DNA of 64,000 nt. Source: an uncultured bacterium (GTDB lineage Bacteria > Babelota > Babeliae > Babelales > Babelaceae). The notes under the pieces are model-generated. The model was not told where the DNA came from and ran no database searches. It worked only from the letters and a program-made list of their open reading frames with translations. This document shows positions 2,379 to 11,652 of this stretch, one piece after another (position 1 is the first letter of the stretch; each line of letters begins with the position of its first letter). The translations under genes were made by a program, and so were the position numbers. The stretch covers positions 1,440,001-1,504,000 of the forward strand of contig CAWFXL010000001.1 of the NCBI GenBank assembly GCA_963819815.1, read 5' to 3'.

Positions 2379-2708
2379 TCAATGAAGGCGAGCACCTTTA
2401 GGTACCGTTTTGTCGGGTCCTATGAGTACGATTGATCCATCATCATTTGTGAGCCCTAAGGTAAGAACCTCAGAGATGAAAGGTCCAATCTGCTTTGGAG
2501 CAAAGTTAACCACCGCAAGTACCTGTTTGCCCACTAATGCCTCTGGTACATAGTTTTTGGTAATTTGTGCAGAGCTCTTTTTAGTGCCGAGCTCCCCAAA
2601 GTCTATCACGAGCTTATAGGCTGGATTGCGTGCTTCCTTGAAGGTCTCTGCAGCAATAATGGTGCCGACGCGGATATCTACTTTTAGAAAGTCATCATAC
2701 GAAATCAT
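2379..2708 (-). CDS. csaA: tRNA-binding OB-fold protein / export chaperone CsaA
   Basis: DFLKVDIRVGTI, KKSSAQIT and VVNFAPKQIGPFISEVLTLG motifs; 109 aa. Confidence 0.9.
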   Translation of the reverse strand: MISYDDFLKVDIRVGTIIAAETFKEARNPAYKLVIDFGELGTKKSSAQITKNYVPEALVGKQVLAVVNFAPKQIGPFISEVLTLGLTNDDGSIVLIGPDKTVPKGARLH

Positions 2709-4111
2709 GCGACCTCCGGTTTAGTGAGACGTGAAATAATGAGGAGCACTGAAAGGCAGATGATAAATCCTGGTAGGAGCGGCATAAAGGTGAATCCAAG
2801 AGAACCCCATACCATGCCCATAATCCCACCGAGAAGCATTGCAACTTGCACGCCCGTTTTTCGAGCCCAGGGGATAAACAGTGCTGCAATAACGGTGGGT
2901 GCGAATGCAAGTCCAAGTCCTGACCAGGCATAGGCAATAAGATCATTAATTGGCTGAGTACTCGTATAGCTTACAAGATAAGACAGGATAGGGAGTCCGA
3001 TAATGCATCCGCGTACAATCAGGAGATAGTGTGCGGTGCTTAGCTTAGGGCCAATAATCGGCTTAAAGAAATCTTCCGTAATTATGGATGCCGTTGCCAA
3101 GATTTGTCCGGTCATGACCGACATGGTTGCGGCTAGAATAGCGCATAAAATTAGACCAGCAAAGAAAGGGTGAAAGAGATCTTTAACCATCTCTATAAAG
3201 ACCAGCTCTCTATTTGCAAGAGGTGCTGCAAAATAGAGAAGACCGACTAGTCCTGCAGCTGTTGCTGCTCCAAGAACAAGCGTCATCCAAGAGATGCCGA
3301 CGTATTTAGCTTTATGCATCTGGTGCACATCATGTATCGACATAAAGTTAATCAGAATATGGGGAGACCCAAAATAGCCAAGGCCCCATCCCATCGAGAG
3401 CAGTAAAATTTGAGAAAATGTTTGCCAAGAGTAGTCTGGAACGAGAGCATGGAAAAAACCGGCAAAACTTACGTACTCAAGTGGATTAACAGGAACGGCT
3501 GATAGTGCTACAATAGGGACAATGCAGATCATGGCGGCTAAGAAGATTCCTCGAATAGCATCACTCCATGCAGCTGCAATAAAGCCACCGATAATTATGT
3601 TTACCACAACTAGAGTGCCACTAATGCTAATGCCGATAGTATAGGGTATTCCGAAGGTTGATTCAAAAAGACGGCCAAGACCAACAAGTTCAGCGCCTAT
3701 ATAATACACGAGAAAATAGGTGGTAAAAAAAACGCTCAGCAGTCTAATAAGCCCTGACGTATCGCGAAAATGTCGTTCAAAAAATGATGCTAACGTGAGA
3801 CTTTCATATTTTTCTGTAGCAGTGCGAAGTCGTGGAGCTATAAATTGCCAGTTTAAAAACATGAACAGGATAAGACCTATCGCAACCCAGAGATTAAAGA
3901 GCCCCAACCCATAGATGAGCCCGGGATAGGCCATGAAGAGCCAATCGCTCATATCACTTGCTTGAGTCCTGAGCGCTGTTACCCAGTAGTTCAACGATCT
4001 GTTGCCGAGCACGAATGAGCTTGTAGAAGTATTTCGCCGATAAAAAAAGATACTTAAGCAAAGAAAAAAAGCAAAGTATCCGACAAATGCACTCAAATAA
4101 TAGTTATCCAT
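2705..4111 (-). CDS. putP: Sodium/proline symporter (SSS family)
   Basis: ASDMSDWLFMAYPG, WGLGYFGSPHIL, AILAATMS and YAWSGLG motifs; about 12-13 TM helices. Confidence 0.85.
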   Translation of the reverse strand: MDNYYLSAFVGYFAFFLCLSIFFYRRNTSTSSFVLGNRSLNYWVTALRTQASDMSDWLFMAYPGLIYGLGLFNLWVAIGLILFMFLNWQFIAPRLRTATEKYESLTLASFFERHFRDTSGLIRLLSVFFTTYFLVYYIGAELVGLGRLFESTFGIPYTIGISISGTLVVVNIIIGGFIAAAWSDAIRGIFLAAMICIVPIVALSAVPVNPLEYVSFAGFFHALVPDYSWQTFSQILLLSMGWGLGYFGSPHILINFMSIHDVHQMHKAKYVGISWMTLVLGAATAAGLVGLLYFAAPLANRELVFIEMVKDLFHPFFAGLILCAILAATMSVMTGQILATASIITEDFFKPIIGPKLSTAHYLLIVRGCIIGLPILSYLVSYTSTQPINDLIAYAWSGLGLAFAPTVIAALFIPWARKTGVQVAMLLGGIMGMVWGSLGFTFMPLLPGFIICLSVLLIISRLTKPEVA

Positions 4112-4327: not shown

Positions 4328-5290
4328 TTAACTTGCGAGTGGCGTGAGAACAAGCCAGATGGAAATAATAAAGGCATAGATAGCAATGGTATCGATAAGC
4401 CCTTGAGCCATCATACTTGCCCGAGAGAGTATGGTGTAGGCTGCTGGATTGTAAGCAATTTGGTCGGCAGCTGCGGCAGCTGCACGTCCAGAACTTATCC
4501 CAGTACCAAATGTTCCGATTCCCATCGTTGCTCCAAAGGCAAGGTATGCAAGACCAATGAGTGGATTTTCATAGACGATTGATGCTTGGTTGATAAGCAT
4601 GAGCGAAATAATAATGGCAAAGACTACAGGTGTCTCAATCATTGCTTGGCTAATAAAGGTAAAAGTGAACAATTTTGAGAAAGCAGCTCTATTGCGGCCC
4701 GCGCTTTTACAGGCTATTTTGGTAAATAGGCAACTACCAAGCACCGGTCCAACAGAACCAAGACCGATAGCGATACCAGCTCCTATAAGTATGAGTGATT
4801 GAGCGACGGTGGTGATACCTGGTAGCATACCATGAATAACGAATGCCATAATAAGTCCAAAGATTAAAGGCGTTTGAAGAAGTGAAAGTACCAGAAGCAT
4901 AAAATTTCTCATGCGACGGGATACAAATGGTTGCCGCGCTATTGCACCAAGAGCGTTAGATGCAGGATCTGCAGAAGCCCATCCTATAACTAAGCCAGGT
5001 ATTCCCATGGAGAAAGCTATGCCAAGCTCTCCCAAAGCTGATGGAAATGTCGTTGGAGGCTTAAAGAATAAGAAAAAAGACATAAGGAATCCAAGGATTG
5101 CTGCGGTCTCAATAAGTGCTAAGGCTAAAATCGTTGCTCCCGTAATTTCTCCTTGCATAGCTGGCTGTCTTTCTATCGCCTCAAAGGAGGCTGCAGCAGT
5201 TTTTCCATGGCTACGGGAAACTCCATATGCAGTGGCAACGGTGCAAAAGACAATGGAAAAAAAATGTATGAGCTGAGCAAGTGCGACCAT
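4328..5290 (-). CDS. atpE: F0 ATP synthase subunit c, four c-hairpins fused in one polypeptide
   Basis: Four ~80-aa repeats with loops RQP/RQP/RNR/YNP and second-helix motifs LIET, LLQT, MIET, LIDT. Its ATG overlaps the atpB stop (TAATG). Confidence 0.9.
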   Translation of the reverse strand: MVALAQLIHFFSIVFCTVATAYGVSRSHGKTAAASFEAIERQPAMQGEITGATILALALIETAAILGFLMSFFLFFKPPTTFPSALGELGIAFSMGIPGLVIGWASADPASNALGAIARQPFVSRRMRNFMLLVLSLLQTPLIFGLIMAFVIHGMLPGITTVAQSLILIGAGIAIGLGSVGPVLGSCLFTKIACKSAGRNRAAFSKLFTFTFISQAMIETPVVFAIIISLMLINQASIVYENPLIGLAYLAFGATMGIGTFGTGISSGRAAAAAADQIAYNPAAYTILSRASMMAQGLIDTIAIYAFIISIWLVLTPLAS

Positions 5291-6105
5291 TAGTGCTTTC
5301 CTTCTTCAATTGCGGTTGCCATACTAATATTAGTAAGCGTAAGAATCGTAAATACAAAAGCCTGTAGCCCGCCCTCAAAGATGACGAAAAATGCCACCAA
5401 TCCCAAATGAACGCCAATAGTACTTATGAGCTGCCAAATAAAAGAACCTGCTATACCATTGTGCCAGATCTGCATAATAATTGCCCCTCCAAATATATTG
5501 CCAAAGAGCCTGAAGGAGAGGGAGATAACCGTTGCTAACTCGCCGAGTATTTTAAAGGGAGCGAAGAAAAGACCGATGATAAGGTTAAGAGGAAAGAAGG
5601 TGGAGACTGGTAGGAAATATTCTTTGAGATAGTGTCCAAAGCCATGGACCTTAATGATCTCTTTTTGTATATAGAGGAGTGCTATTGTTCCCAGGGCAAG
5701 GGTTGTATTAAGATTTTTAGTTGGCTCTTCTACATAGGGAATAAGCGCAACCCAGTTGCAGATGAGAATAAAGATAAAAAGTGCTGCAATAAAATTAAAA
5801 TAGCGATGCACAAAAGCTCCCGTAGACTGTTCAACAAGGGACATAAAACTTCTGATGACCGATGTTGCAACATATTTGCCATAGGTTAGAAATGTAAAGT
5901 CTGGAGGCAGAAGCAGCTTTTGATATTCATGATTTTCACTGTGAATGCGTAGGAGTATAGAACGTGCGAGTAAGCAGAGGGCTAGTATAATTGCTAAGGC
6001 GATCCAGGTACTGATAATGGTAGTTCCAGAAAGAGCAAAAAATTGATTATCTACCCCAAAACTTTTAAGGGGATGCCATATAATTTCATGTTCTACATTT
6101 TGCAT
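5290..6105 (-). CDS. atpB: F0 ATP synthase subunit a
   Basis: PTKNLNTTLAL, SLSFRLFGNIFGG (essential Arg) and EGGLQAFVFTILT motifs. Confidence 0.95.
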   Translation of the reverse strand: MQNVEHEIIWHPLKSFGVDNQFFALSGTTIISTWIALAIILALCLLARSILLRIHSENHEYQKLLLPPDFTFLTYGKYVATSVIRSFMSLVEQSTGAFVHRYFNFIAALFIFILICNWVALIPYVEEPTKNLNTTLALGTIALLYIQKEIIKVHGFGHYLKEYFLPVSTFFPLNLIIGLFFAPFKILGELATVISLSFRLFGNIFGGAIIMQIWHNGIAGSFIWQLISTIGVHLGLVAFFVIFEGGLQAFVFTILTLTNISMATAIEEGKH

Positions 6106-6111
6106 TTTTTA

Positions 6112-6372
6112 CTATTCGTTTAGGCAAAGGATAGCGACCCATTTGGCTATCATCATGCTGCCTCCAAAGAGTATAAAGGGAACGGGTCCCCAATGCAATA
6201 GATACCAGGCTATGAGGCCAAGACTTCCTAAACGAAGTAACGCTAAAATAGGGATATACCGCGATGAAGTTGAGCTATATGCAGATACTTGCCGTATCAG
6301 GTGATAGCCTGACAAAGAGCCTGCACATACCCCTATGGCGAGTGAAGCAATATAGGTGAAAATACTATTCAT
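6112..6372 (-). CDS. Small membrane protein, AtpI/AtpR-like c-ring assembly factor
   Basis: 86 aa with about 3 hydrophobic helices and an LLRL motif, 6 nt upstream of atpB, the position normally held by atpI/atpR. Confidence 0.55.
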   Translation of the reverse strand: MNSIFTYIASLAIGVCAGSLSGYHLIRQVSAYSSTSSRYIPILALLRLGSLGLIAWYLLHWGPVPFILFGGSMMIAKWVAILCLNE

Positions 6373-8182: not shown

Positions 8183-8638
8183 ATGGTACACTCTCGCAAT
8201 GGGTTTACCCTCATTGAGCTGATGATTGTTGTTGCACTTATAGCCTTTTTATCAATGCTTGCGGTACCTAACCTGATGAAAGTGCTTGCTAAAGCGAAGC
8301 GCTCCGAGGCCTATCTTTACTTGCGCACGATAGCTCAGGCTCAAAAGGTGCACTATGCTGAGTATGGTACCTATACTACCACCCTTAATGGTAAAGGTGG
8401 TCTTGGATGGAGGCCTGAAGGTGTTTTCAACTATACCTATGGGTTTCCTGGGACACCTGAGGGGGTAGGCCATTTTGTAGGAGCATTAAAAACCCCAGTA
8501 TCGGCCTTATCTGTCGGTAAGATTGGTGATTCAACCTTTGTTATAGCTGCTGCTGGTAGAATCTACGGAGAGCAGCTAGATATTCTTACTATAAATGAGC
8601 AGGGGGAGATTGCTCTGGTGAGCGATGCGTTGCAGTAG
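8183..8638 (+). CDS. Type IV pilin-like prepilin
   Basis: Class III signal RNG|FTLIELMIVVALIAFLSMLAVP followed by KAKRSEA. Confidence 0.9.
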   Translation: MVHSRNGFTLIELMIVVALIAFLSMLAVPNLMKVLAKAKRSEAYLYLRTIAQAQKVHYAEYGTYTTTLNGKGGLGWRPEGVFNYTYGFPGTPEGVGHFVGALKTPVSALSVGKIGDSTFVIAAAGRIYGEQLDILTINEQGEIALVSDALQ

Positions 8639-8639
8639 T

Positions 8640-9398
8640 CTAGAAAAAGGGCTCAATGAGTTCATGAATCTGCTGCTGTAAGAAAATATAGATAAAGGAT
8701 CCAAGTACAAGCCAAGGCCCAAAGGCTATTTTGGGGTGGGCGCGCTTACTAAGTGCCATCTGGACAATGCATGAAATAATGCCCAAAAAGGACCCGAGAA
8801 GTAAGGATGTCCAAGCACCGGTAATGCCCGTAAATGCGCCTATCATTGCTAATAGATCTATATCCCCTTCGCCCATTCCTTCGATATTGCGAATCGCATG
8901 GAAAATACGGGCAACGATCCAGAGAACCAGATAGCCAAAAAGAGCACCGCGGATGCTCTCAATGAGACTCAAGGGAAGAAGATGCATATAACTTAGGATA
9001 AAGGCGACAGGGATGAGTCCCCAGGTTACATAGCGAGAGATAAGCATTTTCTCAAAGTCAGTACGAATCGTTACGATCCCTGCTGAGATAAAGAGGAAGT
9101 AGCCAAACCAGTACTTTTGATCGATATATATGAGCATGAGGGTAAGCATAAGTGCAGTCAAAAACTCAATAGCGGGATACAATGGAGAAATGATATTTTG
9201 ACACGATCGGCATCTGCCTTTAAGGAGTATAAATGAAATCAACGGAATCGTATCATACCATGCTAACTGAGTTCGACAGTGAGGGCAATATGAGCGCCCA
9301 AAAAAAGAATATCCTCTAATGATTCGGTATCCCACCACATTTAAAAATGAGCCCCAGCAGAGAAAGAGTATAAATTCCAGAAGATAGGCAAAAATCAT
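8640..9398 (-). CDS. pilD: Prepilin peptidase / N-methyltransferase (A24)
   Basis: GSFLNVV..R, RSYCPHC, CRSC, GMGEGDIDLLAMIGAF and AFGPWL motifs. Confidence 0.92.
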   Translation of the reverse strand: MIFAYLLEFILFLCWGSFLNVVGYRIIRGYSFFGRSYCPHCRTQLAWYDTIPLISFILLKGRCRSCQNIISPLYPAIEFLTALMLTLMLIYIDQKYWFGYFLFISAGIVTIRTDFEKMLISRYVTWGLIPVAFILSYMHLLPLSLIESIRGALFGYLVLWIVARIFHAIRNIEGMGEGDIDLLAMIGAFTGITGAWTSLLLGSFLGIISCIVQMALSKRAHPKIAFGPWLVLGSFIYIFLQQQIHELIEPFF

Positions 9399-10047: not shown

Positions 10048-11652
10048 TCAATAGACGAAGGTTACTGTGCCCATGACCATCCCTGATCGATAGGCATTAC
10101 GTTGCTTAGCAGGAGCTTGCCAGAGTAACCCGATGGAGAGACAATCAAAGAGATCATAGTTGAACCCCACATTGACTAGATGCACTTCCCATTTGCTTGC
10201 ACATTCAGCACGTTCAATCTGAAAGCCACTCTCAAAATAGCGAGAATTTTGAGGAATAAATGAACGACATACTTTGATCTTATCAGGAGTATGAGAAACA
10301 ATCGCATATTCAATCCAGACAGAGAGATTGTCTAAAAAGTGATAGGCGTTCATACCGAAATTAAAGTTCCAGGTGGGACCTGGTCGAATAGTGACGTCAG
10401 CTGAGTAGGGGAATATACCACTTTCCTTTGAATTGGTTGGCAAACCGAGGTTACAATATTCGCGCTCAAAAAAGTATGAAAATCCTCCTACCGCGTAGAT
10501 ATCGATCGTATCAAGAAAATCAATGGTACAACCTGCACGGCCGCCTACAAAGGTATGGCGATTATTGCCATTGGGGAGCGCAAAGATCTCACGGTTATCA
10601 ATCTCTTTCATCATAGGGATACCGACCCCTACTTGGGCAAAAGGCATAAAGACGACTCGCGGATAGCGCTCATTATCTTCATTGATAACAAAAAGCTGGC
10701 GCCAATACATACTGAGTCGAAGGTCATCCATTCCAACCTTATGATAGTTACAGTCGTCAAGGCCAAGAACATGAAGCATCCTACTTCTTTGGCTCATGAT
10801 ATTGTTAATTACATATTGTTTACAGTCTGATGGAAATCCAAAATTAAGCGTTGTGTCGCACACAGGCTGGAAGGGCTGTAGGGGGATAACGCAGGCCGCT
10901 TGACCATCAGGATTGCAGGCAATTTGTGGGCAGGGCGGTACTTCAGATGGATCAACAAAAGGTGGCGCAATTGCAATAGGTTCTGCAGGATTTGGTTTTG
11001 GACAACTTGGCGGAGCTGCGGTTACACCTTGCGGAGTGGTTGCTGTTGGACAGGCCGTTCCTAATGCTTGACAGGTCATATCGTTAAAGTTTAGGACCGT
11101 TTGGCGAATATCATTTATGCCCCATTGGGCCATGATTCCTACGGCATAGAAGCAGCGATCGATTAAGAGAAGCTCGCTTTCAAATCGAACGCCATACTTT
11201 CTATACAAAAGAGGGATAGAAAAAAAGCCAAATTCTTGTCGTGGATCGGAATACCGAGGCTTCGTTAAGAATGGGACACAGTCTGCATTGGGCGTTGGCA
11301 ACTCAAGTGCCTGCGTAAGCACATTGTTCATTATAGGATCATAGAAGAAAGCCAGCATATTCCAGCGGCCGTTTATATCTCCCGGATAGATCGTTTGCCG
11401 CTCTTGGTCTTTAGCACGGTTAGCATACTGGCGGTAAGCACTCACGCTTACTCGAAATCGTGCAGGAGCATAGGTATAGTCATAGCGCATGAGATTTGCT
11501 TTTTGCCGAGTGGCAAGGAAGTCATTAGGAAAGACGGTGCTAAAGAGCGGCAATGGATCATTTTGGGTCAAATTTGGAAACATGCCACATAGGGAAGTCT
11601 CTGCGCTTACAAGCGCAAGAAGTAAGCCTAATAAACGTCCCTTGGGTGCCAT
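10048..11652 (-). CDS. Exported protein, probable outer-membrane beta-barrel with a Cys/Pro-rich loop
   Basis: Signal peptide, alternating amphipathic strands, and a C-terminal aromatic beta-signal (GTVTFVY). Confidence 0.55.
   Translation of the reverse strand: MAPKGRLLGLLLALVSAETSLCGMFPNLTQNDPLPLFSTVFPNDFLATRQKANLMRYDYTYAPARFRVSVSAYRQYANRAKDQERQTIYPGDINGRWNMLAFFYDPIMNNVLTQALELPTPNADCVPFLTKPRYSDPRQEFGFFSIPLLYRKYGVRFESELLLIDRCFYAVGIMAQWGINDIRQTVLNFNDMTCQALGTACPTATTPQGVTAAPPSCPKPNPAEPIAIAPPFVDPSEVPPCPQIACNPDGQAACVIPLQPFQPVCDTTLNFGFPSDCKQYVINNIMSQRSRMLHVLGLDDCNYHKVGMDDLRLSMYWRQLFVINEDNERYPRVVFMPFAQVGVGIPMMKEIDNREIFALPNGNNRHTFVGGRAGCTIDFLDTIDIYAVGGFSYFFEREYCNLGLPTNSKESGIFPYSADVTIRPGPTWNFNFGMNAYHFLDNLSVWIEYAIVSHTPDKIKVCRSFIPQNSRYFESGFQIERAECASKWEVHLVNVGFNYDLFDCLSIGLLWQAPAKQRNAYRSGMVMGTVTFVY

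Follow-up and report, generated by a model that had tools for sequence, protein, structure and literature searches.

The window analyzed here, 64,000 nucleotides from a metagenome-assembled genome (MAG) of the Dependentiae (TM6/Babeliales; assembly GCA_963819815.1, contig CAWFXL010000001.1, positions 1,440,001 to 1,504,000), contains, directly behind the F-type a-subunit gene atpB, a gene for an ATPase rotor (c) subunit in which four hairpins are joined in one 320-amino-acid (aa) chain, hereafter c4 (Table 1). The ATP-synt_C domain (PF00137) is recognized in four stretches of this protein, with 108.5 bits against a Pfam cut-off of 24, and a genome-wide search for PF00137 matched the four domains separately within a single stop-free frame (E 1.9e-9 to 3.1e-7, 31.6-38.7 bits each). 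A preliminary description, made from the letters of the sequence and their open reading frames (ORFs), had reported four c-domains beside atpB, with E/Q/E/D at the ion-binding sites and RQP, RQP, RNR and YNP in the cytoplasmic loops. When the hairpins were aligned to the canonical c subunit encoded elsewhere in the same genome, the carboxylate column held E61, Q139, E219 and D300, each followed by Thr, and both sites and loops proved correct to the residue. The TAA stop codon of atpB overlaps the ATG of c4 (CAC TAATG GTC), with AAGGAA upstream, and promoter and terminator scans around c4 returned nothing better than shuffled sequences.

The enzyme to which c4 belongs is of the F-type. A search of the genome for F1 genes, as proposed in the preliminary description, recovered alpha, gamma, beta, epsilon and OSCP, which together with the PF00119 a subunit are the partners of c4, and the best NCBIfam models for c4 itself are those of F0F1 c subunits. 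Membership in the N-type ATPases was rejected, as c4 scored 77.7 against a cut-off of 130.85 with TIGR03322 (alternate F1F0 c), and TIGR03306 reached 67 against 302. A V-type assignment was likewise rejected, with no V-type K found and c4 and the canonical c being the only PF00137 matches in the genome. We take c4 to be a genuine rotor subunit of the organism's single F-type ATPase, with four hairpins in one chain, and probably not the whole rotor.

Table 1. Genes and hairpins at the c4 locus. Positions refer to the window; the last two columns give the signature of each hairpin across the c4 family.
Feature	Position	Strand	Remarks	Family loop	Family site motif
c4, 320-aa four-hairpin F-type c subunit	4328..5290	(-)	Stop codon 4328-4330		
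Hairpin 1, aa 1-80	5051..5290	(-)	Loop R41-Q42-P43; E61-T62; helix-1 ligand position is H28; +5 is Leu, not Tyr	xQP	E-T-A
Hairpin 2, aa 84-158, silent	4817..5041	(-)	Loop A-R119-Q120-P121-F near-invariant; site motif Q139-T-P-x-x-F	ARQPF	Q-T-P-x-I-F
Hairpin 3, aa 162-237	4580..4807	(-)	Loop G-R199-N200-R201; site motif E219-T-P-x-x-F	G-x-N-R	E-T-P-x-I-F
Hairpin 4, aa 243-320	4331..4564	(-)	Loop Y280-N281-P282; D300-T301 and Y305 form a canonical-like outer face	x-x-P	D-T-x-A-I-Y
atpB, F-type a subunit (PF00119, 113 bits)	5290-6105	(-)	Directly upstream of c4		
Small membrane protein of 86 aa, possibly AtpI/AtpR-like	6112..6372	(-)	Upstream of atpB, also in relatives		
FolC-like gene	Upstream of the 86-aa membrane ORF	Same as c4			
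PutP-like Na+/solute symporter	2705..4111	(-)	Downstream of c4; context, not part of the ATPase		

Judged by sequence, c4 is a trait of the whole phylum Dependentiae. A full-length frame of ~320 aa is present in 38 of 41 genomes (this one, which is 88% complete, and 40 relatives), and the other three comprise one with the gene in two pieces with stops (G016), one with a contig-cut piece (G036) and one, 70% complete, in which none was detected (G007). Since the frame is full-length in 38 of 41 genomes and the E/Q/E/D pattern is conserved, the four-hairpin organization is not due to chance. Within a collection of 5.8 billion proteins, 229 match c4 at E <= 1e-5, the best 120 of which range from 229 to 323 aa and carry no more specific name than "F-type ATPase subunit c" or "hypothetical"; among 1.84 billion cluster representatives, 388 match at E <= 0.001 and 139 at E <= 1e-30, and the best 150 of the 388 are nearly all 300-330 aa.

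Conservation was assessed on 116 of the 120 listed homologues (300-335 aa), four shorter ones having been dropped. The site pattern is EQED in 92 of these, EQEE in 16, EEED in 7 and EQES in 1, in line with the preliminary proposal that conservation of E/Q/E/D be checked across the phylum. E61 and E219 are retained in 116/116 and D/E300 in 115/116, and Thr occupies the +1 position of hairpins 1 to 4 in 116, 114, 116 and 116 sequences, respectively. Position 139 is Gln in 109/116, which provides the hairpin without a carboxylate that is expected of a hybrid rotor subunit. The genomic context is equally regular: atpB lies upstream of c4 in 76/76 loci, and the estimated gap between the a stop and the c4 start ranges from -10 to +30 nt in 72 of them, most often -4 or -1, i.e., overlapping codons.

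The preliminary description regarded c4 as the only c gene, and on this point it did not hold. A canonical, single-hairpin c of 80 aa is encoded 91 kb from c4 (contig C1 of this genome, G000:C1:1353461-1353703), where it heads the order c, b' (123 aa), b (159 aa), delta (OSCP), alpha. Of the two findings that the description had itself weighed against its reading, a shortfall from four c-domains was not seen, and of the other, a canonical atpE elsewhere that forms the ring, only the existence of the gene is borne out. The genome holds one a subunit only, the copy next to c4; gamma stands alone at C1:779603-780400, and beta-epsilon at about C1:1215-1217k. The single F-type ATPase is therefore spread over four loci, namely AtpI-like/a/c4 (1444-1446k), c/b'/b/delta/alpha (1353-1356k), gamma (779-780k) and beta/epsilon (1215-1217k), and the arrangements of the first two are conserved across the phylum. 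Because both c types are kept alongside one a, one c-b'-b-delta-alpha set, a lone gamma and a separate beta-epsilon pair, both must serve the same enzyme. This supplies the other feature expected of a hybrid rotor, a canonical c for the same enzyme, although it is not adjacent to c4 as it is in Acetobacterium woodii. A ring formed by the canonical c alone is unlikely because c4 is equally conserved. Likewise, the earlier arithmetic of a homomeric ring of 8, 12 or 16 hairpins, a quarter of them silent, rests on an unsupported premise because a canonical c is also encoded.

The retention of both genes was further evaluated by counting PF00137 matches in 201 Dependentiae genomes at least 85% complete. 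The domain was present in 201/201, with five matches (4+1) in 180 genomes, four in 19, three in 1, two in 1 and more than five in none, and those four-match genomes that could be checked keep both c genes (e.g., G013, G019, G020, G018, G025 and G035). A short c followed by alpha on the same strand was observed in 20/20 diverse genomes, with delta detectable in 14 and a dNK kinase upstream in 15. The canonical c is preceded by a spacer of ~290 nt and an AAGGAG Shine-Dalgarno sequence, and dNK is followed by a terminator-like hairpin; these features mark the canonical c as the start of its own transcription unit. Across 21 canonical c sequences, the helix-1 Gln, the Glu and the Tyr at +5 are each present in 21/21; position +1 is Ser/Thr in 21/21, and position +2 is Ser/Thr in 17/21 and Ala in 4/21. 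The canonical c therefore carries the complete Mulkidjanian Na+ ligand set (Gln, Glu, Ser/Thr, Tyr), on a protein whose loop reads G-K-x-P-E, not RQP.

To place the ion ligands of c4, we relied on Na+ rings, in which one subunit supplies Gln32 and Glu65 and its neighbor supplies Val63, Ser66, Thr67 and Tyr70, and on the two-hairpin K subunit of Enterococcus hirae, in which Leu61, Thr64, Gln65 and Tyr68 of hairpin 1 complete the site that Glu139/Gln110 form in hairpin 2 (PMC2359735). Because hairpin 1 completes the hairpin 2 site in E. hirae K, the partner face of each c4 site was taken to be that of the preceding hairpin, so that the assignments below follow the E. hirae K geometry. The outer face of hairpin 1 presents Q, E or H at residue 28 (59, 42 and 13 of 116, respectively) together with E61 (116/116), and that of hairpin 4 presents T301 (116/116) and Y305 (114/116). 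The inner face of hairpin 1 reads T-A-x-x-L/M (T62, A63, L/M66), with the Tyr lost, and would serve the silent Q139. Those of hairpins 2 and 3 both read T-P-x-x-F, without Tyr, and would serve E219 and D300, for which the helix-1 positions are L/G/S at 186 and Ser at 267. Gln and Tyr ligands are thus both lost there, and the full Na+ ligand set is absent from the internal sites of hairpins 3 and 4. The "partial Na+ signature" of the preliminary description stands insofar as Thr follows each site, but its location does not, as the ligand set sits in the canonical c and in the outer faces of c4. To judge from their residues, these outer faces would fit a canonical c on either side or another c4, and because they also fit another c4, the argument from faces favors a mixed ring weakly.

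The homologues with His28 (13/116, this genome included) comprise 5 of the 7 that have Glu for Gln at the "silent" site 139. Covariation in c4 of position 28 with 300, 302 or other sites gave no usable pattern, the signal being confounded by relatedness.

Two five-hairpin proteins of 406 and 411 aa (c5) were found among the c4 cluster-representative matches, the 406-aa form belonging to MAGs of Thermodesulfobacteriota. In 8/8 c5 loci the gene order is AtpZ-(orf)-a-c5-c-b'-b-delta-alpha, with gamma-beta-epsilon next where the contig continues (e.g., L140:5688-14324 (+), and L141-L147), which places c5 directly between atpB and a canonical Na+-type c. The sites of c5 read E-Q-Q-Q-Q in 8/8 loci, the motif being QTPxIF in the inner hairpins and QSTAIY in the last. 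By hhalign, the two proteins match by position: hairpin 1 of c4 has its best counterpart in hairpin 1 of c5 (score 75), hairpins 2 and 3 have theirs in the inner hairpins (64-84), and hairpin 4 has its own in hairpin 5 (98). The Thermodesulfobacteriota c5 thus resembles c4 in its hairpin-by-hairpin architecture and in following atpB directly; it differs in its E-Q-Q-Q-Q sites and in a contiguous operon with the canonical c, whereas hairpins 3 and 4 of c4 retain carboxylates and the Dependentiae operon is split. Judged by sequence and gene order, the Dependentiae loci resemble this operon after a split between its multi-hairpin and canonical c genes: the order AtpI-like, a, c4, break, c-b'-b-delta-alpha matches that of the c5 operon, a point in favor of a hybrid rotor. 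A c5 with one carboxylate per five hairpins, followed by a canonical c, is itself hard to read except as part of a mixed ring.

Still longer chains of this kind were also encountered, P0232 (968 aa) with 11 ATP-synt_C domains and P0257 (1139 aa) with 15, the 15-domain protein being named from records of Asgard archaea (Promethearchaeota/Hodarchaeota). Each may be a fusion of an entire ring, as in Methanopyrus kandleri.

Comparing individual hairpins with the canonical c by hhalign yielded scores of 121 for hairpin 4, 105 for hairpin 3, 93 for hairpin 1 and 50 for hairpin 2, with sister hairpins of c4 scoring at most 86 against each other; each hairpin profile thus lies nearer to the canonical c than to its sisters. 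A tandem origin of the form (h1h2)(h3h4) was considered and rejected, as hairpins 1 and 3 (49) and hairpins 2 and 4 (48) score below hairpins 3 and 4 (86) and hairpins 1 and 4 (76).

AlphaFold2, run on an alignment of 93 of the 120 homologues, predicts c4 as eight long helices with a mean predicted local distance difference test (pLDDT) of 96.4 and a predicted template modeling score (pTM) of 0.91. A Foldseek search of this model against the PDB placed chain J of 4BEM, the A. woodii c1 subunit, first (E 4.5e-4, TMt 0.77), followed by E. hirae K and eukaryotic V-type c chains, with PDB chains covering at most half of the c4 model (TMq <= 0.45). By sequence profile the best PDB match is again 4BEM_J (E 8.8e-20, over hairpins 3-4). 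A complex of c4 with four canonical c subunits was predicted with an ipSAE of 0.49 (runs 0.15, 0.49 and 0.54), with three controls reaching 0.00 at best; at least 89% of contacts are shared between the runs, and the pLDDT of the partner does not fall below 75. The mark applied is reached by 116 of 157 solved complexes and by 2 of 215 mismatches, and in the zone of ipSAE <= 0.60 only 18 of the 157 solved complexes passed, along with both mismatches that reached the mark. The prediction thus lends weak support to co-assembly of c4 with the canonical c, and because a like complex (4BEM) has already been solved, the pass may reflect memory or likeness.

The remaining gene content points to an organism that imports ATP. 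Three frames of TLC-type ATP/ADP translocases were found, as was one membrane pyrophosphatase, and COX1, a NuoH-type NADH dehydrogenase and Rnf/Nqr had no match in the 88%-complete genome, which agrees with the preliminary suggestions of an energy parasite and of a search for ATP/ADP translocases. The epsilon subunit is 80 aa long and consists of the beta-sandwich domain alone, without the C-terminal helical domain (L014:7238-7480 (-)), and such short forms (67-80 aa, beta-sandwich only) occur in this genome and 5 relatives (L038-L042). In bacterial F-ATPases, it is the C-terminal helices of epsilon, missing here, that inhibit hydrolysis. Genome papers have read the Dependentiae ATPase as running in reverse, the c subunit going unmentioned in the available parts of these papers (PMC4776705, PMC6561590).

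The beta gene requires a separate comment, as it is cut into at least five frames in this assembly, with the adjacent HerA-like gene also cut (L014:5400-9300 = G000:C1:1213400-1217300). Relative to a genome with 93%-identical DNA and an intact 486-aa beta (G001), the 3.3-kb beta/HerA stretch shows 17 single-base indels, mostly insertions outside homopolymers, and the region is one of 5 among 801 segments of 4 kb with less than 25% long-ORF cover. A contig from a public DNA run (X1, share 0.20) that covers the beta region is 90-95% alike and has the same 17 gaps as G001, and on both counts represents a relative, not this strain. We lean towards a local assembly fault, with recent decay as the alternative.

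From the domain structure, conservation, gene contexts and ligand patterns described above, we infer the co-assembly, copy number, ion and direction of this enzyme, and we judge slightly better than even the case for a hybrid rotor of c4 and canonical c in an ATP-driven, probably Na+, pump. In this scheme c4 would co-assemble with several canonical one-hairpin c subunits on the same principle as the A. woodii c1(c2/3)9 ring. It would be made in step with the single-copy a subunit by translational coupling, with the canonical c made independently, and this coupling would probably keep c4 to one or a few copies in each ring. In such a ring one would expect canonical Na+-type sites (those of the canonical c and of the two c4 outer faces), one silent position (Gln139) and two atypical carboxylates (Glu219 and Asp300) whose partner faces have neither Gln nor Tyr. 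ATP-driven pumping is the most likely mode because ATP is imported, a respiratory chain was undetected and epsilon has no C-terminal domain; the enzyme would then energize symporters such as the neighboring PutP-like carrier. The coupling ion is probably Na+, as judged from the ligands of the canonical c.

Several observations weigh against this reading. The E219 and D300 sites have neither Gln nor Tyr, and a Na+ ring with sites predicted not to bind Na+ is mechanistically awkward, so that the inner sites of c4 would speak against a pure Na+ ring; moreover, hairpin 1 of this particular genome carries His28 in place of Gln or Glu. The outer faces of c4 appear to match each other as well as they match the canonical c, which would make a ring of c4 alone compatible with the ligand pattern. 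Lying 91 kb apart, the two c genes are not co-transcribed, and the number of c4 copies per ring is read from gene overlap only. The sole physical proxy for the inferred co-assembly is the structure prediction, which is weak and may be a memory of 4BEM. Finally, if the breaks in beta were real, the F1 of this strain would be dead.

A bolder reading, which we put forward as speculative and on the whole improbable, is an obligate asymmetric rotor in which a single keystone c4 sits in a ring of canonical Na+-type c, forming a mixed-ion F-type pump with built-in asymmetry since the origin of the phylum. There, c4 would fix the size of the ring, the xQP/RQP loops of hairpins 1 and 2 would be a preferred docking patch for the central stalk (the canonical c offering only K-x-P), and a silent tooth and two non-Na+ (H+-type) carboxylates would stand among Na+ sites.

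Among the competing explanations, a homo-oligomeric ring of two, three or four c4 chains, with 8-16 hairpins of which a quarter are silent, would operate as a low-gear pump, with the canonical c forming an alternative ring on the same a and F1 in another life stage or for another ion. We consider this unlikely. It would account for c4 being encoded next to, and translationally coupled with, the only a subunit of the genome, the faces of hairpin 4 (T301, Y305) and hairpin 1 (Q/E/H28, E61) would complete one site together, the AlphaFold2 model is a confident arc of four hairpins, and parasites with infective and replicative stages could conceivably use two rotors. However, the canonical c is universally retained in these reduced genomes, where it heads the stator/F1 operon; relatives with a multi-hairpin c always have a canonical c adjoining; with a single carboxylate among its five hairpins, c5 would be very ill suited to a homo-ring; and the single solved precedent is a mixed ring (4BEM; PMC9171764).

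A hybrid ring could alternatively contain several c4 chains, e.g., two c4 and a few canonical c, which would lower the ion/ATP ratio markedly and not by one site. This variant shares the evidence for the hybrid rotor favored above, and the overlap of the a and c4 genes does not strictly fix their products at 1:1. The coupling to a single-copy a and the 9:1 precedent of A. woodii (PMC9171764) favor one copy, and a strong Shine-Dalgarno sequence (AAGGAG) precedes the canonical c, which has a separate transcription unit, so we hold several copies to be decidedly unlikely. It is very improbable that c4 is not a rotating ion carrier at all, acting instead as an assembly template or a stator-side partner of a, with the canonical c alone as the ring. 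The constant pairing of c4 with a and the AtpI/AtpR-like gene, and internal sites without Na+ ligands, could be read this way, but three carboxylates are under strong selection (E61 and E219 in 116/116, D/E300 in 115/116), the loops of F1-contact type do not vary (xQP in hairpin 1, RQP in hairpin 2), the best structural matches are all ring subunits, and ligands that complete the site of a neighbor persist on the outer faces.

The gear ratio of a rotary ATPase is set by how many ion sites its rotor presents per turn. Textbooks describe the rings of bacterial F-type enzymes as homomeric and A. woodii as the only hybrid. In the Dependentiae, ATP-stealing parasites, a c subunit with four hairpins and three carboxylates is kept throughout the phylum together with a canonical Na+-type c, and a related c with five hairpins and one site occurs in operons of sulfate reducers. 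If these rings are mixed, hybrid rotors would be a widespread design and not a curiosity. The Dependentiae enzyme would then also be a natural F-type ATPase tuned for pumping, its rotor carrying a silent tooth and its epsilon lacking the C-terminal domain. A hybrid F-type rotor as such is already known; what is new is the four-hairpin E/Q/E/D form, the split operon and the phylum-wide fixation in what would be an ATP-driven setting. A literature search that covered few subscription journals and no supplements returned no description of a four- or five-hairpin F-type c and no paper linking Dependentiae, TM6 or Babeliales with a c subunit or c-ring. A 2026 preprint on rotary ATPase evolution treats A. 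woodii as the mixed-ring case, with no mention of Dependentiae in its accessible portion (10.64898/2026.10.01.756066).

Around the ATPase genes, the Na+ symporter noted downstream of c4 in the preliminary description is PutP-like, matching PF00474 at 204 bits, with a TIGR02121 score of 379 bits that lies under the cut-off of 515. The 86-aa ORF upstream of atpB had no Pfam or NCBIfam match and is nearest to AtpR/AtpI clusters with an Atlas feature score of 0.86, a lead only. Elsewhere in the window, inspection of the translations by eye suggested a type IV pilin-like gene (8183-8638 (+)), its N-terminus being of the prepilin type, next to a 252-aa multi-pass membrane ORF that may be the prepilin peptidase (8640-9398 (-)). 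The 534-aa product of the ORF at 10048-11652 (-) is rich in Cys and Pro, and its N-terminus is signal-like.

The closest known system is c1 of A. woodii (PDB 4BEM chain J), which like c4 belongs to an F-type operon and is a multi-hairpin c with fewer carboxylates than hairpins. In both proteins the Glu of hairpin 1 lacks a Tyr at +5 (ETSGIF in c1) and the last hairpin keeps T..Y (QTTGIY), and in both hosts a canonical Na+-type c is co-encoded. A. woodii assembles these subunits into a 9:1 mixed F/V-hybrid Na+ ring, c1(c2/3)9, according to PMC9171764, and in the solved ring the last face of c1 completes the site of the neighboring single-hairpin c. The two differ in hairpin number (four in c4 vs two), in carboxylates (three, as E/Q/E/D, vs one in two hairpins) and in the last site, which is Asp in c4 and Gln in c1. 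Unlike in A. woodii, the c4 gene lies 91 kb from the canonical c, and its host is an ATP-importing parasite as opposed to an ATP-making acetogen.

Other rotors share single elements of this design. The V-type two-hairpin proteolipids (E. hirae NtpK, PDB 2BL2; eukaryotic V-ATPase c/c'/c'') combine fused hairpins with fewer sites in ATP-driven pumps, the eukaryotic set forms a mixed ring, and V-type chains are the second tier of structural matches to c4; they differ in that c4 partners F-type subunits (PF00119 a, delta/OSCP) in a genome in which no V-type K was found. Archaeal A-type c subunits carry 3 hairpins, and in M. kandleri 13 in one chain (PMC9171764; 10.64898/2026.10.01.756066). The M. 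kandleri chain is thought to be a whole ring, in contrast to c4, which is F-type and has a single-hairpin partner c. The Na+ ring of Ilyobacter tartaricus and Propionigenium modestum (PDB 1YCE) has the ligands of the Dependentiae canonical c, i.e., Gln in helix 1 and Glu-Ser/Thr-x-x-x-Tyr in helix 2; those rings are homomeric, and the Dependentiae canonical c differs from them in its loop, G-K-x-P-E instead of RQP.

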